Position numbers and translations under genes: made by a program
The notes under the pieces: model-generated
Databases searched by the model: none
What the model was told of the DNA's origin: nothing
Seen by the model: only the letters and a program-made list of their open reading frames with translations
Part shown: piece by piece, positions 143 to 13,174 of the stretch
Position numbering within the stretch: the stretch's first letter is position 1
Layout of the letters: every line of letters starts with the position of its first letter
NCBI GenBank assembly: GCA_016235455.1
Contig: JACRKZ010000046.1
Coordinates: 1 to 13,175 of the forward strand
From: Armatimonadota bacterium
GTDB lineage: Bacteria > Armatimonadota > UBA10988
Direction of reading: 5' to 3'
DNA: 13,175 bases

Positions 143-226
143 CAGAAACGGTGTCAGAGCAGAAACGGTGTCAGGACCCTTTTTCAGCGATGCTGAAAAA
201 GGGTCCTGACACCGTTTCTGCTAGCG
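137..226. repeat. Perfect 31-bp inverted repeat (158-188 / 192-222, 3-nt loop GAT) with a 17-bp tandem duplication (141-157 = 158-174); REP/REPIN- or MITE-like element, possibly a bidirectional terminator
   Basis: AGCAGAAACGGTGTCAGGACCCTTTTTCAGC-GAT-GCTGAAAAAGGGTCCTGACACCGTTTCTGCT read directly. AGCAGAAACGGTGTCAG occurs twice in tandem. 137-157 is also the exact reverse complement of 206-226. CTAG lies at both ends (139-142, 221-224). Confidence 0.9.
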
Positions 227-1282
227 GCGCTTGAGCTTGCCGCCGAACAGGTGCACCAGCTTCTGCCGCGTGCGCCGGTCCTCGATGTCGGCAAAACGCC
301 GGTGCAGGCCCGCCAGCCCGGCCGCTTCCTGCTGCAAATGATGGTAGCTGGCCAGCCGCGCGGGGGACAGGTCGCCGCGGCTCAAGGCCGCCTTGACCGC
401 GCAGCCGGGCTCGCTCTCGTGGCTGCAGTCAGCGAATCGGCAGTCCTCGGCCAGGGCTTCGATGTCGGCGAAGGTCTCGGCGACGCCGTCGTCGGTCTGC
501 CACAGGCCCAGTTCGCGCATGCCCGGCGTGTCGATGACCAGCGCGCCGCTGGCCAGCGCGAACAGCTCGCGGTGGGTGGTGGTGTGGCGGCCCTTGCTGT
601 CGTCCTCGCGCACCTCGGTCACGCGTTGCCGGCCATCGCCCAGCCAGGCGTTGAGCAGTGTCGACTTGCCCACGCCCGACGAGCCGATCAGCGCCAGCGT
701 CGTGCCCGGCTGCTGGTAGGCGGCGAGCTCGTCCACACCCCAGCCGGTGTGGACGCTGATCGCGTGGACCGGCGCGCCGGCGGCCAGCGCCGACACTTCG
801 CGCTGACGCGCCACGGGGTCGGGGTCGCAGTCGGCCTTGGTCAGCACCACCACCGGCTGCGCCCCGCTGTCCCAGGCGATGGTCAGGTAGCGCTCCACGC
901 GGCTGGGCCGGTAGTTGCCATCCAACCCGACCACCAGCAGCAGCGTGTCGACGTTGCCGGCGATCGGCTGCGGCCGCGGTGTGCCCGGCCCCGGCTGACG
1001 GCGCACGACGCAGGTGCGCCGGGGTAGCACACCCAGCACTACGCCGTCCGGCTGGCAGACGACCCAGTCGCCCACCACGGGATGCGCGGCGGGGTCGATA
1101 TCGCCGCGGCGCAGCAGGCCACACGCCGTGGCGTCGGTCTCGCCGTCGGCGGTCCACAAGACAAAGCGGTCACGGTGGACCGCCACAACTCGGCCCGGCC
1201 GGCAGTCGGCCGTCACGGCCGCGGCGGCCGCGTTCCACGACTGGTCCCAGTGCGGGTCCCAGCCCAGTGCATGCAAGTTCAT
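221..1282 (-). CDS. rsgA: Ribosome small subunit-dependent GTPase A (RsgA/YjeQ/EngC family, circularly permuted GTPase)
   Basis: Motifs: OB-fold region (PVVGDWV), G4 TKAD placed before G1 GSSGVGKST, GRHTTT, G3 DTPG, and Zn finger CRFADCSHESEPGC. Start placed at ATG 1282 (MNLHALGW, preceded by GGGA) rather than the GTG at 1321 in the ORF track. Confidence 0.96.
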   Translation of the reverse strand: MNLHALGWDPHWDQSWNAAAAAVTADCRPGRVVAVHRDRFVLWTADGETDATACGLLRRGDIDPAAHPVVGDWVVCQPDGVVLGVLPRRTCVVRRQPGPGTPRPQPIAGNVDTLLLVVGLDGNYRPSRVERYLTIAWDSGAQPVVVLTKADCDPDPVARQREVSALAAGAPVHAISVHTGWGVDELAAYQQPGTTLALIGSSGVGKSTLLNAWLGDGRQRVTEVREDDSKGRHTTTHRELFALASGALVIDTPGMRELGLWQTDDGVAETFADIEALAEDCRFADCSHESEPGCAVKAALSRGDLSPARLASYHHLQQEAAGLAGLHRRFADIEDRRTRQKLVHLFGGKLKRR

Positions 1283-1470
1283 CGTCGTCCCAATCGGGAT
1301 GCCAACCCAACCGGTCGCCACACGTTCAGCGTGTCTGCGACAGGTAAGGACATGGCGAGCGGTCGCACGAGCGCGCTCGATCCGCGGTGAGGGTCGCTAC
1401 CGACGAGGCCCAGCGCCGGTCGTCGGAGCGGTGGTGACAAGGGTCGTGGCAGCCATTGGTTCCATCTCCT
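1283..1470 (-). promoter_or_regulatory. Structured 5' leader of rsgA; candidate translational attenuator
   Basis: Minus-strand stems seen by eye: CCGACGA/UCGUCGG within the uORF; GUCGC..ACACG-CUGAA-CGUGU..GCGAC; CCGGUUGGG/CCCGAUUGG and UCCC-GAUU-GGGA over the rsgA RBS. UCGUCG can alternatively pair with CGACGA overlapping the rsgA AUG. Confidence 0.45.
1397..1456 (-). CDS. Putative 19-aa leader peptide (uORF) MAATTLVTTAPTTGAGPRR upstream of rsgA
   Basis: Strong SD AGGAG (1470-1466) lies 9 nt before ATG 1456, with another in-frame ATG at 1465 and TAG at 1399-1397. It sits between the predicted promoter and rsgA. 6 of 19 residues are Thr, arranged as three TT pairs. Confidence 0.6.
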   Translation of the reverse strand: MAATTLVTTAPTTGAGPRR

Positions 1471-1598: not shown

Positions 1599-3059
1599 TC
1601 ATCGGCGCATGATGGCTGCCACCACGGGCTTGACGTCCTTGGGCGCCAGTGGGTAGTGCCCTTCGCCGTCCCTGGTGAACAGCGTCACCGCCCCGCCCAG
1701 CGCGCGGTAGCGCTGCTCGATGACCTGCGCCTGCGTGGCGAACGCGGGGTCGAGGCTGCCACACGCTACCACCAGCCGCACACCCGCCTTGGCCAAGGCG
1801 GCCAGGTCGTCCAGCGGCGGCGTCTTGGCGGTCAGACTGCGCAGCACGGGGTTCTCGGCATAGGCGCAGGCCACCTTGTCGGGGTTGGCGATGGCCCAGG
1901 CCCACGCCTCGCCCGCCGCGCGACCGGCGCCCTCGACCACCACCTTGGCCGCGAAGCCGTGGCCGACCATGTGGCGATAGACCGCGTCCCAGTCGCGCCA
2001 CAGCGGGTTGTCCGCGTTGTACGAGATCGGCGCGGTGACGATGTGGTAGCCGGCGGCCAGCAGCGTCAGGTCGACGGCAGCGTCGCGCTCGACCAGCCCG
2101 GCATGATAGACCCATGGCTGGCCCGGCGCGGCGGCCTTGGGGGCGATCACGCTGATCGTGCCCTCGACCCCGTCGAGCCCGAACGCGTAGCGGTCGTAGC
2201 ACGCGGCGAAGACCGGGCCGCGGCAGGTGACCTGCGTGCCCTCGCGCGGCTCATAGGCGCTGTGGCTGCCGTAGAAGGCGGTCCGCGTGGCCTTGGCCGT
2301 GACGTAGTCAGGTGTCGGCGCGGGCGTCTCGCTCGTTGCCTGTTCGATGAAGTCGGCCAGTAGCCGCGGATCCTGCAGGCTGTGCGGATGATGCCCGGCG
2401 CCATCCTTGATCAGCATCGAGACGCGCCCGCCAAACGCCTGGTAGATGCTCTCCACGGCCAGCGCGTGGCCGCCCAGGAGCGGGTCGAGGCTGCCGCAGA
2501 CCTGCAGGATCGGTACATCGGCACCGGCCAGGTCGCCCAGTCGGGCCAAGGACTCGCGCTCGACCGCCGGGTTGTCGACGTAGATGGCCGAGACGCTCCG
2601 CGGGTGCGTCGTGGCCCACCGGTAGGCGAACATGCCGCCCCGGCTCATGCCGATGAAGGCTGGCCGGCGCGACAGGCCGTGCTGGGTCGTCAGGAACTCA
2701 TACCAGGCATCCCACTTGCGGTCGGGCGCAAGTTCGGCGTTGGCCGTGATGTAGGCGATGTGAAAGCCGCGCCGCAGCAGCTCGATCTCGGTCTGCGGCT
2801 GGTGGTCCCAGTAGCAGCCGCGCCACGACCACGGCCGGCCCGGCGCCGCGATGCGCGGCGCGACCACGATGCAGCGGCGCTGCCCCGGCACATCGCCGGT
2901 CGCTGCCGGATCGGCCGGCTTGACGGCAAGGGTGGTTTCGTCCAGCTGGTAGTCGAAGCGGTCGAAACCTTGCCAGGAGGACTTCGCGCCGTCCAAGGGC
3001 GGGGCCTCCTGACCGGCGACCAGGGCGAGGAAGGTGACGAGCAGACTGGACGATGTCAT
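1599..3059 (-). CDS. Secreted tandem alpha/beta-hydrolase-fold protein (esterase-like); N-terminal domain catalytic, C-terminal domain lacks the nucleophile Ser
   Basis: Hydrophobic N-terminus and SD GGAGG (3069-3065). Domain 1 has GMSRGG (nucleophile elbow), CGSLDP (acid) and GHHPHS (His). Domain 2 repeats APxxAAPGxPW, GYHI, YAENP, CGSLDP and GHYP, but has GAGRAAG at the elbow. Confidence 0.85.
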   Translation of the reverse strand: MTSSSLLVTFLALVAGQEAPPLDGAKSSWQGFDRFDYQLDETTLAVKPADPAATGDVPGQRRCIVVAPRIAAPGRPWSWRGCYWDHQPQTEIELLRRGFHIAYITANAELAPDRKWDAWYEFLTTQHGLSRRPAFIGMSRGGMFAYRWATTHPRSVSAIYVDNPAVERESLARLGDLAGADVPILQVCGSLDPLLGGHALAVESIYQAFGGRVSMLIKDGAGHHPHSLQDPRLLADFIEQATSETPAPTPDYVTAKATRTAFYGSHSAYEPREGTQVTCRGPVFAACYDRYAFGLDGVEGTISVIAPKAAAPGQPWVYHAGLVERDAAVDLTLLAAGYHIVTAPISYNADNPLWRDWDAVYRHMVGHGFAAKVVVEGAGRAAGEAWAWAIANPDKVACAYAENPVLRSLTAKTPPLDDLAALAKAGVRLVVACGSLDPAFATQAQVIEQRYRALGGAVTLFTRDGEGHYPLAPKDVKPVVAAIMRR

Positions 3060-3082
3060 GGCGGCCTCCGTTGCCGGCAGGG

Positions 3083-3111
3083 AGTCTAGGTCGGCGCGGC
3101 GCGCGCGTCAA
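3083..3111 (-). promoter_or_regulatory. Sigma70-like promoter for the alpha/beta-hydrolase gene
   Basis: -35 TTGACG (3111-3106), 17-nt spacer, -10 TAGACT (3088-3083), immediately upstream of SD GGAGG and ATG 3059. Confidence 0.7.
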
Positions 3112-3203
3112 AACATCGCAACCCGTCCAGGTTGGCGCCAGCCGACGCCACGGCGGGAAGGTGGCTGGCCGGCGATGGCGAATCGGTCGACCTGGAGTAG
3201 TCC

Positions 3204-6200
3204 ATGAGACGAGTGATCGCGTGTGTGGCGTGCGGCGTGTTGCTGGCGCTGTGCCAGGCGTCGGCGGCCATCAGGGTGGCGTCGACGCGAACGGAGTACG
3301 AGGCCCGACCGCTGGGCATCGGCCCGCGGGTGCCGCGGCTGTCGTGGTCGGCCGCGGGTGACCGGCGCGGCGAGCGGCAGAGCGCCTACCAGGTGACGGC
3401 CGCCGCCAGCGAGACGGCCCTGGGCGCGGGACGCGACCTGCTGTGGGACAGCGGCAAAGTGGCCAGCGATCAGTCGCAGTTCGTCGACTACGGCGGACCC
3501 GCGTTGACTTCGCGCCAGCGCGTCTGGTGGCGGGTGCGGGTGTGGGACGAGCGCGACGCGGCCTCGCCCTGGAGCGAATCGGCCTGGTTCGAGACCGGCC
3601 TGCTGAAGCCCGCGGACTGGCAGGCCAAGTGGGTCACCACGCCGCGCGAGACCGCCGATCCCACCTGGCAGGGCGCCAAGTGGATTTGGACGCCGGGCGA
3701 CAACGAGGCCACCGGCCATCGCTACTTCCGCACCACGGTCAATCTGCCGGCCGATGTCGGCATCCAGGAGGCCGCGCTGAGCATCACCGTGGACGACCAG
3801 TTCACCGCGTTCCTCAATGGTGAGCAGGTGGGCAAGAGCAGCGGCCAGGGCGATGCCTGGCGCTCACCGATCAAGATCGACCTGCGCGGCAAGCTGAAGA
3901 CCGGCCCCAATGTGTTGGCCATCGACGGCGAGAACGGCGGCAGCGCCGCGGGCCTGTTGGCGCGGCTGGCGCTCAGTTTCAACGGCACCAAGGCGCCGGT
4001 GGTTTCCGGTCCGGCCTGGAAGTGCAGCACCGTGGCGGCGCCGGAGTGGAACACCGTGTCCTTCGACGACAAGGGCTGGACTAACGCCAAGGTCATCGCC
4101 GACTACGGCCTGGGCCCCTGGGGTCAACTCGGCCCGGCGGGCACCGGTGGCGGGCTGCCGCCGGTCACCTACCTGCGCCGCGGCTTCGACCTGACCAAGC
4201 AGGTCAGCCGCGCGCGACTCTATGTGACCGCGCTCGGCCTGTACCGCTGCCGCCTGAACGGCCAGAACGTGGGCGATGCCATCCTGGCGCCCGACTGGAC
4301 CGATTACCGCAAGCGCGTCGAGGCGCAGACCTACGATGTGACCAGCCTGGTCAAGCCTGGCGCCAACGTGCTGGGCGCGCTGTTGGGTGACGGCTGGTAT
4401 GCCGGCCACGTCGGCCTCGGCGGCCGGCAGCGCTACGGCCAGCAGGCGTGGTTCCTGGCGCAGTTGATGATCGACCATCCTGATGGCACGACCACGGTGG
4501 TGGCCAGCGGTGACAACTGGAAGGCGCGCTCCGGGCCGATCCTCTTCTCGGACCTGCTCATGGGCGAGGGCTACGATGCCCGCGCCGAGCTCGGTGCGTG
4601 GGACAAGGCCGGCTACGACGACGCCACCTGGCAAGCCGCCAAGGCCGACGTGCCCAACACGGTGAGTGCAGTCGAGTGGCCCATGGGTCCCCCGGTGCGC
4701 CGACTGACCGAGCTCCCGGCCAAGACGCTGGCCGAGCCCAAGCCTGGGCGCTGGACATTCGACCTGGGCCAGAACATGGTGGGCTATGCGCGGCTCAAGG
4801 TGAACGCTGCCGCCGGCACCAAGCTGACGCTGCGCTTCGCCGAGATGCTCAATCCCGACGGCACGGTCTACACCACCAACTACCGCGGCGCGCGCTGCAC
4901 CGATGAGTACACCTGCCGCGGCGGTGGCGTGGAGACCTGGGAACCGACCTTCACCTTCCGCGGCTACCGCTACGTGGAGTTGACCGGCCTGACCGCGAAG
5001 CCCGCGCTCGACGCCGTGACCGGTGTGGTCATCGGGTCCGATGCGCCCGAGAGCGGCACGTTCGAGTGCTCTGATCCACTGCTGAACCAGCTCCAGCGCA
5101 ACATCGTCTGGGGCCAGCGCGGCAACTTCGTCTCCGTCCCCACCGACTGCCCGCAGCGCGATGAGCGCCTGGGCTGGACCGGTGACGCGCAGATCTTCGT
5201 GCGCACGGCCACGTTCAACAACCAGGTCGGCGGGTTCTTCACCAAGTGGCTGGTGGACCTGGACGACGCGCAGGCGGCCAACGGCGCTTACCCCGACGTC
5301 GCGCCGCGCGTGGCCGCCGGTGACGGCACCGCCGCCTGGGGCGACGCCGGCGTGGTCTGCCCGTGGACCGTCTATCAGGCCTACGGCGACCGGCGCCTGC
5401 TGGCCGACCACTACCCGAACATGGTGCGCTGGGTCGAGTATTGCCGCGAGCACTCGAACAAGCTGCTGCGGCCGGCGTCGGGCTATGGCGACTGGCTGTC
5501 CATCGGTGCCAACACGCCCACCGACGTGCTGGCCACGGCCTACTTCGCGCGCAGCACCGAACTGACCGCACGCGCGGCGACCGTGCTGGGCAAGACCGAG
5601 GATGCGGCCAAGTACAAGGCGCTGTGGGACGACATCGCCAAGGCCTTCCAGGCCGCCTATGTGCAGCCTGATGCGCGCATCAAGGGCAACACGCAGACCT
5701 GCTACCTGCTGGCGCTGCGCTTTGGCCTGCTGCCCGAGGCGCAGCGTGCTCAGGCGGCGACCTACCTGGCCACCGACATCGAGCAGCGCGGCTGGCGGCT
5801 GTCCACGGGCTTCGTGGGAGTTGGTCACCTGCTGCCCACGCTGACGCAGGTCGGCCGGACTGACGTGGCCTGGAAGCTGTTGCTCCAGGACGCCTTCCCG
5901 AGCTGGCTGTTCTCGGTCAAGCACGGCGCGACGACCATCTGGGAGCGCTGGGACGGCTGGACGCCCGACAAGGGCTTCCAGGACGCCGGCATGAACTCGT
6001 TCAACCACTACTCGTTCGGCAGTTGCGGCGAGTGGATGTACGCCAACATCCTGGGCATCGCGCCCGACGTGGAGGGCGAGGTCGGCATCGGCTACCGGCG
6101 CATCGTGGTGGAGCCGCGGCCCGGCGGCGGAGTCACCTCGGCCAAGGGCAGCTATCGCAGCGGCTACGGGCTGATTACCACCGATTGGCGTCTCGACGAT

Positions 6201-6383
6201 GGTAAGCTGACACTGTCGGTGACGGTGCCCGTGGGCGTGACCGCCCGCGTGGTGCTGCCGCCGAGCGTGGCCAAGGAGAGCGGCAAGCCGCTGGCCAAGG
6301 CCGACGGCGTGAAGGTCGTGTCGACCAGCGCCGATGGCTCGGTGTGTGAAGTGGGTAGTGGCACCTGGCGGTTCACGCCGTAA
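3204..6383 (+). CDS. Secreted glycoside hydrolase family 78 protein (alpha-L-rhamnosidase) with an extra beta-sandwich domain
   Basis: Signal peptide and SD GGAG (3194-3197). N-terminal PRLSW..QSAYQV..LWDSGKV domain, ARLYVTALGLY/DWTDY domain, FDLGQNMVG..FTFRGYRYVE domain, and catalytic (alpha/alpha)6 motifs PTDCPQRDERLGWTGD, GATTIWERWD and MNSFNHY. Confidence 0.95.
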   Translation: MRRVIACVACGVLLALCQASAAIRVASTRTEYEARPLGIGPRVPRLSWSAAGDRRGERQSAYQVTAAASETALGAGRDLLWDSGKVASDQSQFVDYGGPALTSRQRVWWRVRVWDERDAASPWSESAWFETGLLKPADWQAKWVTTPRETADPTWQGAKWIWTPGDNEATGHRYFRTTVNLPADVGIQEAALSITVDDQFTAFLNGEQVGKSSGQGDAWRSPIKIDLRGKLKTGPNVLAIDGENGGSAAGLLARLALSFNGTKAPVVSGPAWKCSTVAAPEWNTVSFDDKGWTNAKVIADYGLGPWGQLGPAGTGGGLPPVTYLRRGFDLTKQVSRARLYVTALGLYRCRLNGQNVGDAILAPDWTDYRKRVEAQTYDVTSLVKPGANVLGALLGDGWYAGHVGLGGRQRYGQQAWFLAQLMIDHPDGTTTVVASGDNWKARSGPILFSDLLMGEGYDARAELGAWDKAGYDDATWQAAKADVPNTVSAVEWPMGPPVRRLTELPAKTLAEPKPGRWTFDLGQNMVGYARLKVNAAAGTKLTLRFAEMLNPDGTVYTTNYRGARCTDEYTCRGGGVETWEPTFTFRGYRYVELTGLTAKPALDAVTGVVIGSDAPESGTFECSDPLLNQLQRNIVWGQRGNFVSVPTDCPQRDERLGWTGDAQIFVRTATFNNQVGGFFTKWLVDLDDAQAANGAYPDVAPRVAAGDGTAAWGDAGVVCPWTVYQAYGDRRLLADHYPNMVRWVEYCREHSNKLLRPASGYGDWLSIGANTPTDVLATAYFARSTELTARAATVLGKTEDAAKYKALWDDIAKAFQAAYVQPDARIKGNTQTCYLLALRFGLLPEAQRAQAATYLATDIEQRGWRLSTGFVGVGHLLPTLTQVGRTDVAWKLLLQDAFPSWLFSVKHGATTIWERWDGWTPDKGFQDAGMNSFNHYSFGSCGEWMYANILGIAPDVEGEVGIGYRRIVVEPRPGGGVTSAKGSYRSGYGLITTDWRLDDGKLTLSVTVPVGVTARVVLPPSVAKESGKPLAKADGVKVVSTSADGSVCEVGSGTWRFTP

Positions 6384-6427
6384 GGGCGAACCGCCGTGGA
6401 CACCCGGTTGTGCCACGGAGGAACATG

Positions 6428-9400
6428 ATGCGGCGCATCGTTGCCTGGGTCTTTGTGCTGGTGGCTATCGCGGCTCACGCCGACGCTCTGTCCGACGCGC
6501 GACCGATGCTCGATGCGCCGCTCCTCTTCGTGAAGCGGCACTCGTACACCGGCATCCACATCTACGACACGTACTACAAATGGCCGCCCGGCGGCGGCGG
6601 CATCTACGTGCTGGAGAATCCCGCCGATCCGCCCGCGCAGCATCGCATCCGACCGATCATCGACGCCACCACGCCCGGCACGCTGGGCAACGGCGTCTAC
6701 ACCCATCCCGAGCTGTCGTTCGATGCGACCAGGCTGCTGTTCTGCTACAAGGGCGAGCCGACCGGCAACACTTCCATCTATGAGATCGGCGTCGACGGCA
6801 AGGGACTACGGCGGCTCAGCGATCCAGGCCCGACCTGCTCGGACTACCACGGCAGCCAGGCCGGCCAGCACGACGTCGCACCGTGCTACCTGCCCGACGG
6901 GCGCATTGCCTGCCTGTCCACGCGGCCCAGCGGGCTGGTGCCGTGCAACAACACCGGCGTGGCCGTGCTGCATGTGATGAACGCCGACGGCAGCGACCTG
7001 CATCCCATCTCGGTCAACTTCGTCAACGAGTTCGATCCGGTGGTGATGCCGGACGGCCGGCTGTTGTTCGGCCGCTGGGAGTATGTGGACAAGAACGCGC
7101 TGACCATCCAGTCGCTGTGGACCAGCCGGCCCGACGGCAGCGAGGAGACGGCCTACTACGCGAACAACATGGTGCTACCGGAGGCCATTCTGGACGTGCG
7201 GCCGGTGCCGGGCACCGCGCTCGTGGTGGGCACCTTCGCCAAGCACAACAGCACGCCGCGCGGCTCCATCGCCATGGTCGATGCCCGCCTGGGCAAGAAC
7301 AACGTCAAGGCCATCACCAACTTCGAGCATCCCGACCAGCCCACCTTCGACACCGGCGACTCGTGCGAGCCGTGGCCGCTCGACCGGGACACGGTGCTGT
7401 TCAGTGGCCGGCCCGCGGGCAGCGCGCGCAACGTGCTGCAAATCCTCACGCGCTCGGGCGAGCGGCAGACGCTGCTGGCCGATCCGGCCATCTGCCTGCA
7501 CTCGCCCATGCTGATCAAGCCGCGGCCCGTGCCGCCGGTGTTGCCGGCGGTGGCCAACCGCGACGCCGACATGGGCCGCTTCGTGGTCAAGGACATCTAC
7601 CGCGGGCTCGACGGCATCAAGCGCGGTGAGGTGAAGTCGCTGCGCGTGCTCGAGGAGACCTCGCGGGTCTCCGAGCGCAGCGGCGCCAATCCGTTCAACC
7701 AGGTGTTCCTGGTCTCGGCGGCGCTGGCCTTCAGCGTGAAGAACGTGCTGGGCGTGGTGCCTGTGGACGCCGACGGAGCGGCCTCGTTCGACGTGCCCGC
7801 CGGCCGCGCCGTGTTCTTCCAGGCACTCGATGCCGATGGCCGGCTGGTGCGGTCCATGCGCACCTTCATCCAGGCCGTGCCCGGCGCAACGCGCTCGTGC
7901 GTGGGCTGCCACGAGGACCGCAACACTGCGCCGTCCAACGACGCCGCCTCGCGGAGCCTGCTGCCCAAGCTCGAGGCGCCCGCCGCCAGGCTGGTCGACG
8001 AGTCATGGGGCAGCGGCTACCTCGACTACCCGAGCCAGGTGCAGCCGGTGCTCGACCGGCATTGCGCGTCGTGTCACGGCGGTGACAAGGACATCGCCGC
8101 CGGCCTCGACCTGTCGGGCGGCTGGACAGAGTTCTTCAGCATCTCGTATGAGAACCTGGTCAATCGCCGCCGCTCGCAACTCACCGCCGATCTCATTGCC
8201 GGCATCGACTGCATGAATGGCACGGCCTGGTGGTCGAGCCAGATCTTCGGCCCGCGCGGCCACGGCTCCGGCGCGGCGCCACTGGCAGCGCTGCTGGTGG
8301 ACGGCCATGGCGGGCGAATCCCCGACCTGACGCGGCGCGAGCGCGACCTGCTCATGGCTTGGATCGACACCAACGGCCAGTACCATGGTACCTGGGACAT
8401 GGCGCCCGGCGGCCAGTGCGACACCAACGGCTGGACTGCCACGCGCGCCGCGCTGAGCCAGCAGATGAACGTCGCCGGCTGCGTCAAGTGCCATGGCGGC
8501 CGCTTCGAGGACGACTGGTTCAACCTCGAGCAGCCCGAACAGAGCCGCATTCTGCGCGCACCGATGGCCGCGGGCCAGCCCGGCGCGCTGACCTGGTGCC
8601 GGCAGCGGGCCGTCGGCCAGGACCCGCGCGTGCGGCTGCTGGTCAGTGGCTACGCGCACGCGGTCATGCCCGCCGAGCAGTTCCCCCGGCGCGAGTGGCA
8701 GCCGGCCGACCGCTCTGGCGAACCGGTGGCCAGCTTCGCCTCCAGCGCCGACCCGAACTACCAGGCCATGCTGGCCACCATTCGCCGTGGCCGCGAGATG
8801 GCTTTGGCCAAGCCGCGGGTCGATCAGCCCGGCGTCCAGGTCGTTGCCGGCGCACAGCGCATGTACCGGCCGCCCATGCCGCCCGAGACCGCGCCGCCGT
8901 TGTCGGCCAGTGTGGACGACGACGGCGTGGTGACGCTGGCCTGGGAGCGCTCGGCGCGCACCATCGGTCTGGAGGCCGTCGTGGCACGCGGTGACAAGAC
9001 CATTGCCGACACCCCGCTGTTCGCCTGCGCCGACGCGGCCGCGCCCACGGGGCGCGCCGAGTACTCGCTGGTCGTGTCCGCGCGTGGCCGGCGCAGCCAG
9101 CCGAGCCACGTGACGCTGGAGGTGCCCGCGGCCAAACCGCCGGCCGCGCCGACCGGGTTGACCGCTGGTGCGCAACCGAACGCCGTGCGACTGAGCTGGT
9201 CAGCGGTGGAGCGCGCCGCGGGCTACGTGGTGGACCGCGCGCTCGAGGGCCAGCCGCCGGTGCGGCTGACGGCCGAGCCCATCGCGCTGCCGACCTACAC
9301 CGATGGCAGCGGCGAGGCCGGCCGCGCCTATCGCTACACGGTGAGCGCGGTGAGCCGGCGGGCGGTGGCGGGCCCGCCGTCGGCGCCCGTGACCGGCACG

Positions 9401-9982
9401 GCAGTGGCACTGAAGGGGCCGGTCCTCGACCTGCCGCTGACCAGCCTGGCCGACGGTCGGCTGTGGGACGGCTCGGCGCTGACCGGGCGGCTGGCGGGTG
9501 GGGCGCAGATCACCGCCGACGGTCTGAAGATCGGGCCGACCGGCTCGCTGACTTTGCCGCACCACGAGCAGTTCGACCTGACAGGGCCGTTCAGCGTCGA
9601 CTTCCGCGTGTTCATCGAGCAGGCGGGCGATATGCCGGTGCTCGTCAGTTGCGGGCTGTGGCAACAAGCGGGCTGGTTCGTGCAACGGCTGGGCGGCGCC
9701 TGGCGCTGGCATGTGGGCGGCCTCGATTGCGACGGTGGCCAGCCGGCGGTGGCCAAGTGGATCCGGCTCACCGGCGTGTGGGACGGTCAGGAGGCGCGCC
9801 TCTACCAGGATGGCCAGCTCGTCGGCAAGGTCGCGGGCCGGGTCAACTCGGCGCCGTTCGGCGGACCGCTGATGGTCGGCCAGTACAGCGGTGGACCGGC
9901 ACCGTCGTTCCAGGTGGTCGGCCGCATCAAGGCTGTCGGCCTGCATCGGCGGGCGCTGACCCCTGAGGAGATCAAGCCGTGA
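6428..9982 (+). CDS. Secreted HzsA-related (hydrazine synthase alpha-like) protein: TolB-like beta-propeller + HZS-alpha middle domain + three CxxCH heme c motifs + FN3-like + LamG/ConA-like domain
   Basis: SD GGAGG (6417-6421) before ATG 6428 (alternative ATG 6425), and a signal peptide. Propeller motifs PCYLPDGRI, PVVMPDGRLLFGRWEYVD and LWTSRPDGS; middle domain LGVVPVDADGAASFDVPA..FFQALDADG..MRTF. CVGCH 7898-7912, CASCH 8063-8077, CVKCH 8480-8494. FN3-like PAAPTGL..LSW..GYVV..YRYTVSAV; LamG-like WIRLTGVWDG..LYQDG..RALTPEEI. Confidence 0.85.
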   Translation: MRRIVAWVFVLVAIAAHADALSDARPMLDAPLLFVKRHSYTGIHIYDTYYKWPPGGGGIYVLENPADPPAQHRIRPIIDATTPGTLGNGVYTHPELSFDATRLLFCYKGEPTGNTSIYEIGVDGKGLRRLSDPGPTCSDYHGSQAGQHDVAPCYLPDGRIACLSTRPSGLVPCNNTGVAVLHVMNADGSDLHPISVNFVNEFDPVVMPDGRLLFGRWEYVDKNALTIQSLWTSRPDGSEETAYYANNMVLPEAILDVRPVPGTALVVGTFAKHNSTPRGSIAMVDARLGKNNVKAITNFEHPDQPTFDTGDSCEPWPLDRDTVLFSGRPAGSARNVLQILTRSGERQTLLADPAICLHSPMLIKPRPVPPVLPAVANRDADMGRFVVKDIYRGLDGIKRGEVKSLRVLEETSRVSERSGANPFNQVFLVSAALAFSVKNVLGVVPVDADGAASFDVPAGRAVFFQALDADGRLVRSMRTFIQAVPGATRSCVGCHEDRNTAPSNDAASRSLLPKLEAPAARLVDESWGSGYLDYPSQVQPVLDRHCASCHGGDKDIAAGLDLSGGWTEFFSISYENLVNRRRSQLTADLIAGIDCMNGTAWWSSQIFGPRGHGSGAAPLAALLVDGHGGRIPDLTRRERDLLMAWIDTNGQYHGTWDMAPGGQCDTNGWTATRAALSQQMNVAGCVKCHGGRFEDDWFNLEQPEQSRILRAPMAAGQPGALTWCRQRAVGQDPRVRLLVSGYAHAVMPAEQFPRREWQPADRSGEPVASFASSADPNYQAMLATIRRGREMALAKPRVDQPGVQVVAGAQRMYRPPMPPETAPPLSASVDDDGVVTLAWERSARTIGLEAVVARGDKTIADTPLFACADAAAPTGRAEYSLVVSARGRRSQPSHVTLEVPAAKPPAAPTGLTAGAQPNAVRLSWSAVERAAGYVVDRALEGQPPVRLTAEPIALPTYTDGSGEAGRAYRYTVSAVSRRAVAGPPSAPVTGTAVALKGPVLDLPLTSLADGRLWDGSALTGRLAGGAQITADGLKIGPTGSLTLPHHEQFDLTGPFSVDFRVFIEQAGDMPVLVSCGLWQQAGWFVQRLGGAWRWHVGGLDCDGGQPAVAKWIRLTGVWDGQEARLYQDGQLVGKVAGRVNSAPFGGPLMVGQYSGGPAPSFQVVGRIKAVGLHRRALTPEEIKP

Positions 9983-11001
9983 CCTTCGCCTTCATGCTGC
10001 TGAGCACGCTGAGCCTGGCCGAGCCGAACTGGGTGGAGGCGCACACACTGCTGCTCGAGGGACGCGGCTGGACCGATGTGGCGGCGCCGTATGACCGGCT
10101 GCCGGCCCGCGCCGAGAAGCTGGTGCGGCCGGACGTGTGGAATCTGTCGCGCAACTCCGCGGGGCTCTGCGCGCGGTTCGTGACCGGCGCGCACAGCCTG
10201 CGCTGCCAGTGGACGCTGCTGAGCACCAACCTGGACATGCCGCACATGCCGGCCACCGGGGTCAGCGGCGTCGACCTGTACGCCCGGCTGCAGGGCGGCT
10301 GGCGGTTCGTGGCCAACGGCCGGCCCACGGCGCAGACCAACGAAGCCGAGTGGGGCCTGCCCGCCGGCGCCAGCGAGTACCGGCTCTACCTGCCGCTCTA
10401 CAACGGCGTGTCGAGCGTGAAGCTGGCTGTGCCCGAAGGGCAGACGCTGTCCGCTGCCCAGCCCTCGGCGACGCGGCCCGTGGTGGTCTATGGCACCTCC
10501 ATCGCCCAAGGCGGATGCGCCTCGCGACCCGGCCTGGCCGCGGTGGCCATGGCCGGCCGCCGGCTGGATGTGCCGACCATCAACCTGGGCTTCTCGGGCA
10601 ACGGCCGGAGTGAGCCCGAGGTCGCGGATCTGCTGGCCGAACTCAACCCGTCGGTGTTCGTGCTCGACCCGCTCTGGAACATGTCGCCCGACGAGGTGAG
10701 CGCGCGCATTCCGCCGTTCGTGCGCCGGCTGCGCGCGGCGCGCCCGGCGACGCCCATCCTGCTGGTCGAGGACAGCCAGGTCTACAACCAGGTGCCCACA
10801 GGCAAGGGCCGGCTGCTGCGCGGCATCATGGACACCCTCAAAGCCGAAGGCCTGACCGGCCTCTACTTCCTGTCGGCCGAGGGCATGTTGGGCATCGACG
10901 GCGAGGGCACGGTCGATGGCTGCCACCCCAACGACCTGGGCTTCGCGCGGCAGGCCGAGGCCTACATCAAGGCGCTGGCGCCGTTGCTGCCGCAGCCGTA
11001 G
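9979..11001 (+). CDS. SGNH/GDSL hydrolase with N-terminal GxDLY domain (probable carbohydrate esterase)
   Basis: GVDLY motif; block I YGTSIAQG, block II NLGFSGNG and block V DGCHPNDLG; short hydrophobic N-terminus. The GTG start overlaps the upstream TGA (GTGA 9979-9982). Confidence 0.92.
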   Translation: MTFAFMLLSTLSLAEPNWVEAHTLLLEGRGWTDVAAPYDRLPARAEKLVRPDVWNLSRNSAGLCARFVTGAHSLRCQWTLLSTNLDMPHMPATGVSGVDLYARLQGGWRFVANGRPTAQTNEAEWGLPAGASEYRLYLPLYNGVSSVKLAVPEGQTLSAAQPSATRPVVVYGTSIAQGGCASRPGLAAVAMAGRRLDVPTINLGFSGNGRSEPEVADLLAELNPSVFVLDPLWNMSPDEVSARIPPFVRRLRAARPATPILLVEDSQVYNQVPTGKGRLLRGIMDTLKAEGLTGLYFLSAEGMLGIDGEGTVDGCHPNDLGFARQAEAYIKALAPLLPQP

Positions 11002-13174
11002 GCGCCGCCAGCACGCCGAGCCCGTAAGCCACGTCCGCCATGGGCGACTGCACCGTGTACTCGCACATCGACGGCCACCAGAAGACGTCGAAGTACGCCT
11101 CCAGCGACGGCCAGCCGGCCAAGGCGGGATAGGCCTTGGGCGCGACCAGCTTGAAGGCGAAGTTGTCGGTCTGATCGGCCAGATACTGCGGGCCGAAGAC
11201 CGTCAGGCCCGGTGGCGGTGCCTGGCCAGTGTGCCGCGAGTCCAAGTGCAGCGGGTTCTGGGGCGAACGCTGGCCGAGGCCGGTGGTGTAGCTGAAGTTC
11301 AGCGGGTTGGCGCCGAACTGCTGTTGCACCGAGCGCAGCAGCGCCGTGTGGTACTTGGCATCGCCCGTCAGCAGCCAGGCGCGGGCGATGTTCTTCGGCG
11401 GCGCGGTCAGGCCGCCATAGGCCATCGGCGCCCAGGGATTCTTGGTCCAGCCAAAGGCGCTACGCTGGCCCCACATCAGCCAGAAGTCGGCCTCGCGCAG
11501 CAGCGCGGCACGGCAGTTGGCCAGCAGTGTGGCATCGACCCCAGGCTGGCGGCAGTGCAGGTAGCTCCAGGCGGCGTCGCGCTGGTTGTGCTTGCCCCAC
11601 GACTCCATCTCGTTCTTGGGGTCGGCGAAGACCGTGGTCTGCCGGAACAACTCGTGCCAGGCGGCCTCGCCGGTGGCGCTGTAGAGCTCCAGCGCGGCCA
11701 GGTTCCGCTCGTCGTTGACCTGGTGCGGGTCGTTCTTGCCGGCGCGCTCGGGCAGCGCCGCCTCGGCCCAGCGCATGGCGCGCAGCGCGCTCTGCAGGTA
11801 GACATCGGCCAGCCTGGCATCGCGTCCGAGCAGCACCCGCGCCGCCAGCGCCGCGGTTCCGGCGTAGCTGTAGCTCGACCACGGGTCCGGCGCATAGGCC
11901 ATCACCGTGAGCGTCTCCTGCCACGAAGCCTCGCCCTGGTTGGGGTGCTCGGCGCTCTCGATACCGCCACGGATGCCGCCCTCGGGCGTCTGCATGCGGC
12001 GGTAACCGTCTAGGTTGTACAGCGCCTCATCGATCACGTCGGGCAGGGCGTTGGTGCTCTCGGGCAGGTTGAGGTTCAGCCCGTCCACCAGCCCGGGCCG
12101 CTGCTCGGCCAGATCCAGCAGATTGCGCGACGCGATCAGGTGCTGGATGCGCCGGTCCCAGTCGCCAGCGTCCATGTAGGCGCCCCAGGCGTTGGCCACG
12201 ATCTGGTCGGTCTTGCCCTTGACCAGGTTGCCGAAGTTGCCAGCCTCCTTGCCCAGGCCATTGCCGCTGTCGAGCAGCCCGCAGGTGCTGTGGTAGACGA
12301 CCAGCCCGTCCTCGGGGTTGAAGCAGCGCGGCCGCCGGAACTCGGTGTAGGGTGGACCCAGCGCGATGCCGCTGCGCTGATGGTAGAAGCCGCGAGTGGC
12401 CAGCGCGAAGGCATCGCGCCACGCGGTCTGGGCGATCTTGAAGGGGAACGAGCAGCCGATACCGTCCACCACGACCCGGTACTCGCCGGGCGCCTGGACC
12501 TGCGCGAAGTCCATGCGCCACACGTCGACGCCGTTGTGGTTGCGCTTGTAGGCATCCTCATCGGCGACATCGGCGGCCTTGGCCAGGACGACCTGGCCTG
12601 AGGCGGCAACGGAGCCAGTCGCGGCGTTGACCACTCGGAAGGTCTGGCCCGCGGGGTACTTGAGCGCGCCGCCATCGCCAAGCCAGCAGGAGAGGAAGGC
12701 CACCTTGAGCGGGTCGCTCGGCGCGAACCCGACCTGGCTGACATGAACAGCCTCGCTGCGCAGTTGGGTCGGATCGAAGGTGAAGGTCGGCGCCGCGGGC
12801 CCGATCTCGCCCAGCCTCAGCGAGTAATGACGGCCCACGGTCAGCGGCGCCGGTAGATGCAGAAAGAGATGGTGCTCCAGCGGGCTGTCGAAGGCCCAGC
12901 CCGCGGTGCGGCAGAGGTCGGTCGGCTTGGTCTTGCGCGACAGCCGGGTGGGCGACTGCGCCGTGGCGTAGGCCGCGTCGTCGGGCGACTGTAGCCGGTA
13001 GTCGACGAGCCGGTCCACGGGCCGCTCGCGACCGCTGCCGACCACGGCGTCGTAGGGTGTGAAGACGTCGGCCTTGGGCCCGACGATGTTGCCTACGGGC
13101 TTGCCGCCGCGCAGCAGGACGCGGCCGCGGCCGTCGGGCCGGACCTCGTCCCCGGGCTGCGCCACGTAGGGCTG
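10967..13174 (-). CDS. Glycoside hydrolase family 9-like protein with N-terminal Ig-like domain; 5'-truncated by the window edge
   Basis: VHVSQVGF..K Ig-like start, PGEYRV..GIGCSFPFKI, FYHQRSG, DAGDWD (12172-12161 for DAGD), GANPLNFSYTTGLG..P..PLH and C-terminal EYT (Glu 11062-11060). The frame stays open (..QPYV) to the window end, so GTG 13165 is probably not the true start. Confidence 0.88.
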   Translation of the reverse strand, partial: QPYVAQPGDEVRPDGRGRVLLRGGKPVGNIVGPKADVFTPYDAVVGSGRERPVDRLVDYRLQSPDDAAYATAQSPTRLSRKTKPTDLCRTAGWAFDSPLEHHLFLHLPAPLTVGRHYSLRLGEIGPAAPTFTFDPTQLRSEAVHVSQVGFAPSDPLKVAFLSCWLGDGGALKYPAGQTFRVVNAATGSVAASGQVVLAKAADVADEDAYKRNHNGVDVWRMDFAQVQAPGEYRVVVDGIGCSFPFKIAQTAWRDAFALATRGFYHQRSGIALGPPYTEFRRPRCFNPEDGLVVYHSTCGLLDSGNGLGKEAGNFGNLVKGKTDQIVANAWGAYMDAGDWDRRIQHLIASRNLLDLAEQRPGLVDGLNLNLPESTNALPDVIDEALYNLDGYRRMQTPEGGIRGGIESAEHPNQGEASWQETLTVMAYAPDPWSSYSYAGTAALAARVLLGRDARLADVYLQSALRAMRWAEAALPERAGKNDPHQVNDERNLAALELYSATGEAAWHELFRQTTVFADPKNEMESWGKHNQRDAAWSYLHCRQPGVDATLLANCRAALLREADFWLMWGQRSAFGWTKNPWAPMAYGGLTAPPKNIARAWLLTGDAKYHTALLRSVQQQFGANPLNFSYTTGLGQRSPQNPLHLDSRHTGQAPPPGLTVFGPQYLADQTDNFAFKLVAPKAYPALAGWPSLEAYFDVFWWPSMCEYTVQSPMADVAYGLGVLAAPTAAAATAPAP

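Follow-up and report, generated by a model that had tools for sequence, protein, structure and literature searches.

Introduction

The closest described relatives of the protein considered here are found around the hydrazine synthase of anammox bacteria, in the HZS_alpha family (PF18582). According to the available text of Hagglund et al. (PMC12758564), HzsA has over 600 structural homologues, of which none has been tested for its function, and the homologues from outside the anammox bacteria lack the residues ligating haem alpha-I and the zinc site (alphaTyr591, alphaCys303). In the accessible part of another report (PMC10732223), hydrazine-synthase-like proteins were proposed to be a broad family with alternative substrates. 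The concept of a cytochrome dedicated to glycans has a precedent, because a role in carbohydrate metabolism was proposed, in the available portion of He et al. 2017 (PMC5615132), for PSCyt cytochromes fused to carbohydrate-binding modules (CBM). Here we analyse an HzsA-related cytochrome, called X, which is encoded on a contig of an Armatimonadota bacterium (JACRKZ010000046.1, C146 in our numbering) between the genes for a glycoside hydrolase (GH) family 78 alpha-L-rhamnosidase and an SGNH esterase; these three genes are referred to as the trio. The window is this entire contig of 13,175 bases, and the genome comprises 6.5 Mb with ca. 70% G+C in 185 contigs.

As predicted from its sequence, X is a c-type cytochrome with three haems that is exported by the Sec route and belongs to the HzsA-related family. 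Within this large and catalogued family, of which no member has a tested function, it is unexceptional. The main value of the analysis is a clear negative, in that the genes next to HzsA-like genes are not enriched in carbohydrate-active enzymes (CAZymes); fusions to lectin-type modules, fusions to FGE-sulfatase (formylglycine-generating-enzyme-like) domains and neighbourhoods with RhaT are left as leads.

Architecture of X

Pfam analysis of X returned HZS_alpha, Laminin_G_3 and, apart from these, weak cytochrome matches only. The HZS_alpha match scores 76.4 bits against a gathering score of 26.6 and covers profile positions 1-98 of 98, and a second CxxCH motif follows ca. 55 residues past the one in the middle domain, as the family expects. 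A phmmer alignment to HzsA (5c2v_A, E 1e-7) places CVGCH of X on CSGCH and CASCH on CAMCH. An AlphaFold2 model was built from 51 orthologues (predicted local distance difference test score, pLDDT, 78.6; predicted template modelling score, pTM, 0.71). In this model the propeller is followed by a middle domain rich in beta structure and by a helical haem region, which, modelled without cofactor, is of low confidence; two Fn3-like sandwiches come next, and the LamG domain is predicted with confidence. Beta strands occupy residues 827-992, and one of the two sandwiches lies upstream of that at 9137-9358. In a Foldseek search with the model the top match was again 5c2v_A (E 2.2e-20, TM 0.62 on the target, 793 columns, 16% identity), with TolB propellers next. 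The order of domains is thus established as signal peptide, TolB-like propeller, HZS_alpha domain with haem 1, helical region with haems 2 and 3, two Fn3-like sandwiches and LamG (Table 1). An earlier reading of the same DNA, made from the letters alone and called the sequence-only reading below, had described the product of the central gene as a multihaem HzsA-like protein, and the HZS_alpha match (E 2.6e-21), the three CxxCH motifs and the Foldseek result bear this out.

The three CxxCH motifs are invariant in the aligned orthologues (51/51), and the mean identity to X in this set drops from 70% in the propeller to 49% in LamG. Among the HzsA-like paralogues of the genome, motif 1 is present in 26/26 and motif 2 in 25-26/26, and motif 3 in 6/24 called paralogues. 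R217, W218, Y220, C174, D237, M478, haems 1 and 2 and H628 are retained in at least 23 of the 26.

Family and orthogroup

X is one of 26 PF18582 genes in its genome. A search of 1.84 billion representatives gave 8254 clusters at E<=1e-3, of which 1298 remain at E<=1e-30, and the ESM Atlas clusters closest to X carry the name 'HzsA-related protein' with scores of 0.95-0.98. The best 80 of 129 relatives of X are 47-66% identical to it, mostly over the full length, and come from metagenome-assembled genomes (MAGs) of Planctomycetota, Verrucomicrobiota, Victivallales and Hydrogenedentota together with a few oddly labelled ones. Three further orthologues were found in a sample of 401 genomes of the phylum, which gives 83 further loci in total (46-66% identity); the comparisons as a whole cover ca. 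150 related loci. In a FastTree phylogeny of 104 rows, X falls into a 79-row clade (support 100) that holds none of the other 25 paralogues of its own genome, which shows that it belongs to a conserved orthogroup across MAGs of Planctomycetota, Verrucomicrobiota and Lentisphaerota. The gene tree of X is out of step with taxonomy, since its sister is a protein from a Victivallales MAG.

The orthogroup tree also mixes Planctomycetota, Verrucomicrobiota, Lentisphaerota and Hydrogenedentota with implausible labels (Bifidobacteriaceae, Nealsonbacteria, Acidiferrobacteraceae), a pattern that suggests horizontal transfer within the Planctomycetes, Verrucomicrobia and Chlamydiae (PVC) group, binning errors, or both. 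A PF18582 match above cut-off was also seen in the control genome of Bacteroides thetaiotaomicron, a tractable organism with rich expression data on polysaccharide utilisation loci (PUL).

X is not a hydrazine synthase. It scores 40.7 bits with the NCBIfam model hydrazine_alpha (NF052339), for which the cut-off is 800, and no HzsB/C-like gene lies in the window, as the sequence-only reading had correctly remarked of the beta and gamma subunits. A genome-wide search for HzsBC-like genes returned a single weak CCP_MauG match (G000:C183:6822-6959), located beside another paralogue. Elsewhere in the phylum, 10 of the 39 usable loci defined below have a gene with propeller and CCP_MauG (HzsBC-like) within two genes of the HzsA-like gene (L093, L099, L103, L104, L109, L115, L117, L118, L119, L120), and a RidA-like (Ribonuc_L-PSP) gene of 320-385 amino acids is found in 5/39, three loci having both. 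These pairings point to small-molecule chemistry.

Proposed role of X

The reading we prefer, to which the sequence data lend about an even chance, is that X is a glycan-tethered redox protein. X would act in the periplasm or at the cell surface, with the conserved propeller/haem-1 pocket as the reactive site, and haems 2 and 3 would exchange electrons with other carriers of the periplasm. A lectin-type module that varies between family members (LamG in X; discoidin, NPCBM and others in the paralogues) would hold the protein on a glycan or sugar-derived substrate. Carbohydrate-binding-type modules (Laminin_G_3, F5_F8_type_C, NPCBM, CBM-like, Bac_rhamnosid_N) are carried by 14 of the 26 paralogues as compared to 6/203 random genes (p 3e-11), a comparison for which large secreted proteins would be the fairer control. 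The other paralogues carry DUF7402 only (two), a C-terminal FGE-sulfatase domain only (three) or no module at all (seven). Operon-like pairs are formed at other paralogues with genes for GH20, GH35, GH28, a sulfatase and a 3-keto-disaccharide hydrolase.

C-terminal FGE-sulfatase domains are found in four of the 26 paralogues (C77, 94176-98444; C151, 73452-77195; C167, 12492-16664; C169, 14038-17745), and separate FGE-sulfatase genes adjoin HzsA-like genes elsewhere (L099:6560-7495, L103:7791-8732, L121:2664-3956, L174:7977-9554). Such genes stand at +-1, that is directly next to the HzsA-like gene, in 3/39 phylum loci. Fusion and adjacency hint at the cytochrome as a redox partner.

An arrangement that mirrors the GH78-X-SGNH trio with non-homologous parts was found in two genomes, G386 and, spread over two contigs, G336: here an orthologue of X, which forms the first branch of the orthogroup, stands between a GH141_M/beta-helix/LamG gene and a Lipase_GDSL_2 gene with gaps of 0-31 nt. 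Family GH141 includes fucosidases, according to the available text of PMC10154630. The signal from this second trio is weak, because by our own estimate, made with the background rates of the own genome, ca. 0.1 further independent trios would be expected by chance among the 83 loci. Additionally, RhaT genes lie near X in three loci (L123, L177, L179), which corresponds to 3/610 orthologue neighbours vs 1/4494 genes of the own genome (post hoc, p 0.006), and RhaT, FGGY, MR_MLE, Fe-ADH and class-II aldolase taken together account for 19/610 neighbours vs 13/4494 (post hoc). In the six-row subclade that includes the window, an RGL11_C-like gene precedes the X orthologue of L174 (at -1), and L123 has FGGY at +2 and RhaT at +4. 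In L161 a GH78 protein of 1126 amino acids is encoded at +5 behind a CUT2-like sugar ATP-binding cassette transporter (12952-21332). A link of the X orthogroup to deoxy-sugar (rhamnose/fucose) glycans is possible and weakly supported.

Several other genes recur next to X orthologues. Rhamnose-type blocks (L123:7273-13257, L177:1458-7319, L179:3-3250) hold RhaT, an FGGY kinase, a DAO-type flavin adenine dinucleotide (FAD) oxidoreductase and short-chain dehydrogenases/reductases. Co-oriented genes for AP_endonuc_2 proteins (xylose-isomerase-like TIM barrels of 290-415 amino acids) stand at -1 in L124, L130, L136, L138, L142, L143 and L149, loci that belong to two clades in the tree of X (a post hoc observation); the count is 9/128 scanned +-1 genes at orthologues vs 2/203 in the own-genome background (p 0.004). 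Genes of the URO-D family (uroporphyrinogen decarboxylase/MtaA-like) lie directly upstream of X orthologues at L123:1560-2966, L126:222-1481, L137:7603-8775 and L179:1144-2202, and this family is expanded in the own genome (34 phmmer matches among 4494 genes).

Gene neighbourhoods

A gene was counted as a strict CAZyme when a Pfam match at E<=1e-5 bore a GH, polysaccharide lyase (PL) or carbohydrate esterase (CE) name, a decision made by eye. Genes were called with a simple caller based on length and third-position G+C (GC3), which gave 4494 genes for the own genome. In the own-genome design, 244 genes lying no more than ca. 8 kb from one of the 26 paralogues, which form 24 locus groups, were set against 203 genes from 17 random 20-kb regions drawn with a fixed seed. 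The CAZyme density of this genome is unusually high, with 20 of the 203 background genes being GH, PL or CE.

The neighbourhood results, together with two cautions, weigh against a glycan role of X. The own-genome neighbours include 16/244 CAZymes (6.6%) vs 20/203 (9.9%) in the background, a difference in the opposite direction (Fisher p 0.22). Directly flanking genes show a weak trend (9/47, 19%, vs 20/203; p 0.08), with 7/197 CAZymes at positions 2 and beyond. At least one CAZyme flank is present at 7/24 paralogue loci and at 25/152 random non-CAZyme genes (p 0.15); for two CAZyme flanks the numbers are 2/24 and 2/152 (p 0.09). For the phylum design 40 loci were fetched, of which 39 were usable (L090 was excluded as no HzsA-like gene was called); positions +-1 and +-2 were taken as near and those five or more genes off as distal, with +-3 and +-4 (54 and 46 genes) left out. 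Strict CAZymes amount to 5/72 at +-1, 3/64 at +-2 and 6/88 at distal positions, so that near (8/136) and distal genes do not differ (p 0.78). The orthologues of X show no enrichment either, with 10 strict CAZymes among 133 non-paralogue +-1 genes at 80 loci. Nor are the partners of X conserved. tblastn searches with the GH78, esterase, GH9 and hydrolase-like proteins of the window gave nothing at E<=1e-5 in the 40 phylum loci, and phmmer searches of the 80 orthologue loci found GH78 in 0/80 at +-1 (one locus at +5), the GxDLY esterase in 0/80 and GH9 in 0/80; GH141 was found in three of these loci and GDSL_L084-like genes in two, the GDSL-type genes lying 5-6 genes away. Clustering of the 610 neighbour genes at orthologue loci revealed no conserved partner, the largest recurrent group being other HzsA-like paralogues (35 genes in 20 loci). 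As to the cautions, lectin-type modules are no proof of a glycan substrate because they are common on secreted PVC proteins generally, and the sugar-catabolism and RhaT signals are post hoc, come in part from loci that are related to each other (L177 is nearly identical to L179) and have a single genome as their background.

The sequence-only reading had expected the neighbours of HZS_alpha homologues to be rich in CAZymes and had itself named this as the test by which it could be refuted; in all three designs (16/244 vs 20/203, 8/136 vs 6/88, and 10/133) that expectation failed. Judged as a conserved CAZyme cluster of the PUL type, the surroundings of X show a co-localisation that is neither conserved nor above background. 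We infer that the trio arrangement is local to this CAZyme-rich genome and does not represent a conserved system. A literature search also yielded no paper tying HZS_alpha proteins to glycan degradation, although the supplements of PMC12758564 and PMC5615132 may list neighbourhoods.

Organisation of the locus

The open reading frame list and the Pfam/NCBIfam scans give six genes on the contig (Table 1).

Table 1. Features of the window and of protein X, with positions on the 13,175-base contig.
Feature	Positions	Strand	Basis
RsgA	221-1321	-	Pfam/NCBIfam scan
Secreted alpha/beta-hydrolase-like protein, 486 aa, divergent from trio	1599-3059	-	Abhydrolase_1, sub-threshold (E 0.0024); signal-like N-terminus
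Divergent intergenic region, 144 nt, likely promoter region of trio	3060-3203		Sequence
GH78 alpha-L-rhamnosidase, 1059 aa, with signal peptide	3204-6383	+	Five GH78 Pfam domains
X, HzsA-related tri-haem c-type cytochrome, 1185 aa from ATG 6425	6425-9982	+	Reading frame open from GTG 6410
X: Sec-type signal peptide (MMRRIVAWVFVLVAIAAHA/DALS)	6425-6493	+	Translation; cleavage site inferred
X: TolB-like beta-propeller, most conserved part	6494-7609	+	All-beta in model; Foldseek TolB (E 1.5e-9) and 5c2v_A
X: HZS_alpha middle domain, haem motif 1 (CVGCH, 7898-7912) at its end	7625-7915	+	PF18582, E 2.6e-21
X: haem motif 2 (CASCH), equivalent to second CxxCH of HzsA	8063-8077	+	Aligned with CAMCH of 5c2v_A
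X: haem motif 3 (CVKCH), extra site relative to HzsA	8480-8494	+	Invariant in 51/51 orthologues
X: Fn3-like beta-sandwich	9137-9358	+	PDB 3mpc_A, Fn3-like, E 1.5e-5
X: Laminin_G_3 (concanavalin-A-like lectin-type) module	9539-9976	+	PF13385, E 4.6e-13; pLDDT ca. 90
GxDLY + SGNH (Lipase_GDSL_3) esterase, 340 aa	9979-11001	+	GxDLY E 2.4e-40; Lipase_GDSL_3 E 1.7e-50
GH9-like glycosidase (CelD_N + Glyco_hydro_9), convergent with trio	10967-13165/13174	-	Glyco_hydro_9, E 3.3e-21; 5' end cut by contig end

The GH78 gene stops at 6383, and a GGAGG at 6417-6421 precedes two ATG codons (6425 and 6428), leaving 41-44 nt between GH78 and X; the TGA stop codon of X is shared with the GTG start codon of the esterase gene in a GTGA at 9979-9982. 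Because of this short gap with its GGAGG, the GTGA overlap and the lack of any terminator-like site between the three genes on the + strand in a promoter/terminator scan, GH78, X and the esterase are probably co-transcribed in this genome, and translation of the esterase appears to be coupled to that of X. The same scan of region 3060-3203 gave one promoter-like site, on the - strand (3111-3083) and at chance level. Signal-peptide-like N-termini were read from the translations of GH78, X, the esterase and the 486-residue hydrolase-like protein; that of the esterase is short and has no charged n-region. The esterase gene and the convergent GH9 gene share 35 nt at their 3' ends (10967-11001). 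Numerous DUF1559/N_methyl proteins are encoded elsewhere in the genome and give it a PVC-type, Planctomycetota-like character.

In most respects the gene order agrees with the sequence-only reading, which had described three co-oriented genes with a 44-nt gap and a GTGA overlap, all with signal-peptide-like N-termini, and had seen no transporter or regulator; indeed none is found among the six genes, and the contig ends may hide such genes. Of the two flanking genes it had added, the GH9-like gene is confirmed by its CelD_N and Glyco_hydro_9 domains, whereas the label 'esterase-like' for the gene at 1599-3059 is weak, because its product has only the sub-threshold Abhydrolase_1 match and no relative was found for it in the PDB. 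The sole paralogue of this protein is gene 10 of contig C59 (E 4e-36), five genes from a tandem pair of HzsA-like genes.

The GH78 protein has the full domain set and the similarity to a solved structure expected of a rhamnosidase, on which its predicted activity rests: the strongest Pfam match is Bac_rhamnosid6H (E 2.9e-126), PDB entry 3w5m_A matches with E 0, and the NCBIfam model rhamnosid_Stmyc gives 1202 bits, under its cut-off of 1720. The esterase resembles an uncharacterised protein of known structure (4lhs_A, E 2e-54), and the GxDLY/SGNH type is present in a single copy in the genome. Genome-wide there are 13 GH78-type matches, 25 of the GH141/beta-helix-LamG type, 5 of GH9 and 47 of the sulfatase type. 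None of the GH78-type genes adjoins another HzsA-like paralogue, which speaks against the trio model of the sequence-only reading.

Alternative explanations

The window alone does not make the case for haem-based carbohydrate redox chemistry, and a shared role of the trio in glycan breakdown is only plausible, because in the comparison of ca. 150 loci its neighbourhood is peculiar to this CAZyme-rich genome. X could be a chance neighbour of the two enzymes, a cytochrome unrelated to glycans that takes part in electron transfer or in the turnover of small N, S or O compounds and whose modules anchor it in the envelope; we regard this as somewhat unlikely. The placement of the trio would then follow from the density of CAZymes in this genome (about one gene in ten), and the flanking of 25/152 random non-CAZyme genes by CAZymes, the three designs without enrichment, the highly variable contexts of the orthologues and the subfamilies that occur elsewhere with HzsBC-like and RidA-like genes all agree with it. 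Less easily reconciled with chance are the tight spacing and the start/stop overlap, which favour co-expression with two glycan enzymes, as well as the carbohydrate-binding-type modules on 14/26 paralogues, the excess of loci with two CAZyme flanks (p 0.09) and the reappearance of a non-homologous GH-X-SGNH trio in a distant lineage.

At the other extreme stands a dedicated unit in which the esterase deacylates a glycan, GH78 takes off rhamnose and the cytochrome oxidises the same glycan as a new type of auxiliary activity. The sequence-only reading had favoured such a step, either oxidation or electron transfer, with acylated glycans containing rhamnose as the substrate, a proposal that is not supported by the present data, since the partners are not conserved (GH78 at +-1 and the GxDLY esterase both 0/80, and GDSL-type genes only 5-6 genes off in two loci). 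The operon-like trio, the GH141-X-GDSL trio of G386 and G336, and the RGL11_C-like, RhaT, FGGY and GH78 genes of L174, L123 and L161 would fit it; a chance expectation of about one in ten for a further independent trio and the 13 GH78-type matches of which none adjoins another paralogue do not, and we consider it improbable. We know of no haem-c enzyme that oxidises glycans, which we also count against a dedicated unit. An enzyme of nitrogen metabolism that makes or consumes hydrazine or hydroxylamine in the manner of hydrazine synthase is suggested by the homology of X to HzsA in fold and haem motifs, yet it is hardly credible given the low hydrazine_alpha score, the lack of beta and gamma subunit genes in the window, the one weak CCP_MauG match genome-wide beside the C183 paralogue, and the loss of the haem alpha-I ligands and the zinc site that the available text of PMC12758564 reports for non-anammox homologues.

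Returning to X as a glycan-tethered redox protein, a wider form of this idea would be that HzsA-related cytochromes with exchangeable lectin-type modules are a widespread and so far unrecognised class of periplasmic redox auxiliaries for the use of glycans or sugars in PVC bacteria, the LamG orthogroup serving 6-deoxy-sugar (rhamnose/fucose) glycans. We hold this to be rather unlikely; it would explain GH78 in the window, GH141 in a distant lineage and the RhaT/FGGY clusters elsewhere. The HzsA-related family counts thousands of clusters, with 26 copies in one genome, and is mostly found in polymer-degrading PVC bacteria. Should a haem-dependent redox step in carbohydrate use be real, it would add a new kind of enzymology to the turnover of glycans in soil, lake and ocean and would place the evolutionary origin of hydrazine synthase in a functional context.

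Comparison with known systems

X resembles TolB, the periplasmic propeller of the Tol-Pal system, in the six-bladed propeller at its N-terminus (TM ca. 0.52 on the target), whereas TolB has neither haem domains nor a lectin module and serves a different function. PSCyt1-3 are, like X, exported c-type cytochromes of PVC bacteria with fused Laminin_G_3, NPCBM or Bac_rhamnosid_N modules, and they are often located near sulfatases, as stated in the available portion of PMC5615132; they belong to an unrelated cytochrome family, and the carbohydrate role put forward for them is likewise a hypothesis. Pfam detects no PSCyt1-3 or PSD1-5 domain in X, and a PSCyt2/PSD1 protein is encoded elsewhere in the genome (L042:15355-18654).

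HzsA of Kuenenia stuttgartiensis (PDB 5C2V chain A) shares with X the propeller, the middle domain, the fold of the haem domain, CxxCH motifs 1 and 2 and the HZS_alpha match. Unlike HzsA, with which it is 16% identical, X has a third haem site and C-terminal Fn3-like and LamG domains, has no beta/gamma partner and occurs in a CAZyme-rich heterotroph instead of an anammox bacterium. The catalogued HzsA-related/HZS_alpha proteins of Planctomycetota, Verrucomicrobiota and other bacteria form the same family as X; the accessible literature concentrates on those paired with HzsBC-like genes, a pairing that X does not have. To this family the present analysis adds neighbourhood statistics and an orthogroup with a C-terminal LamG domain.

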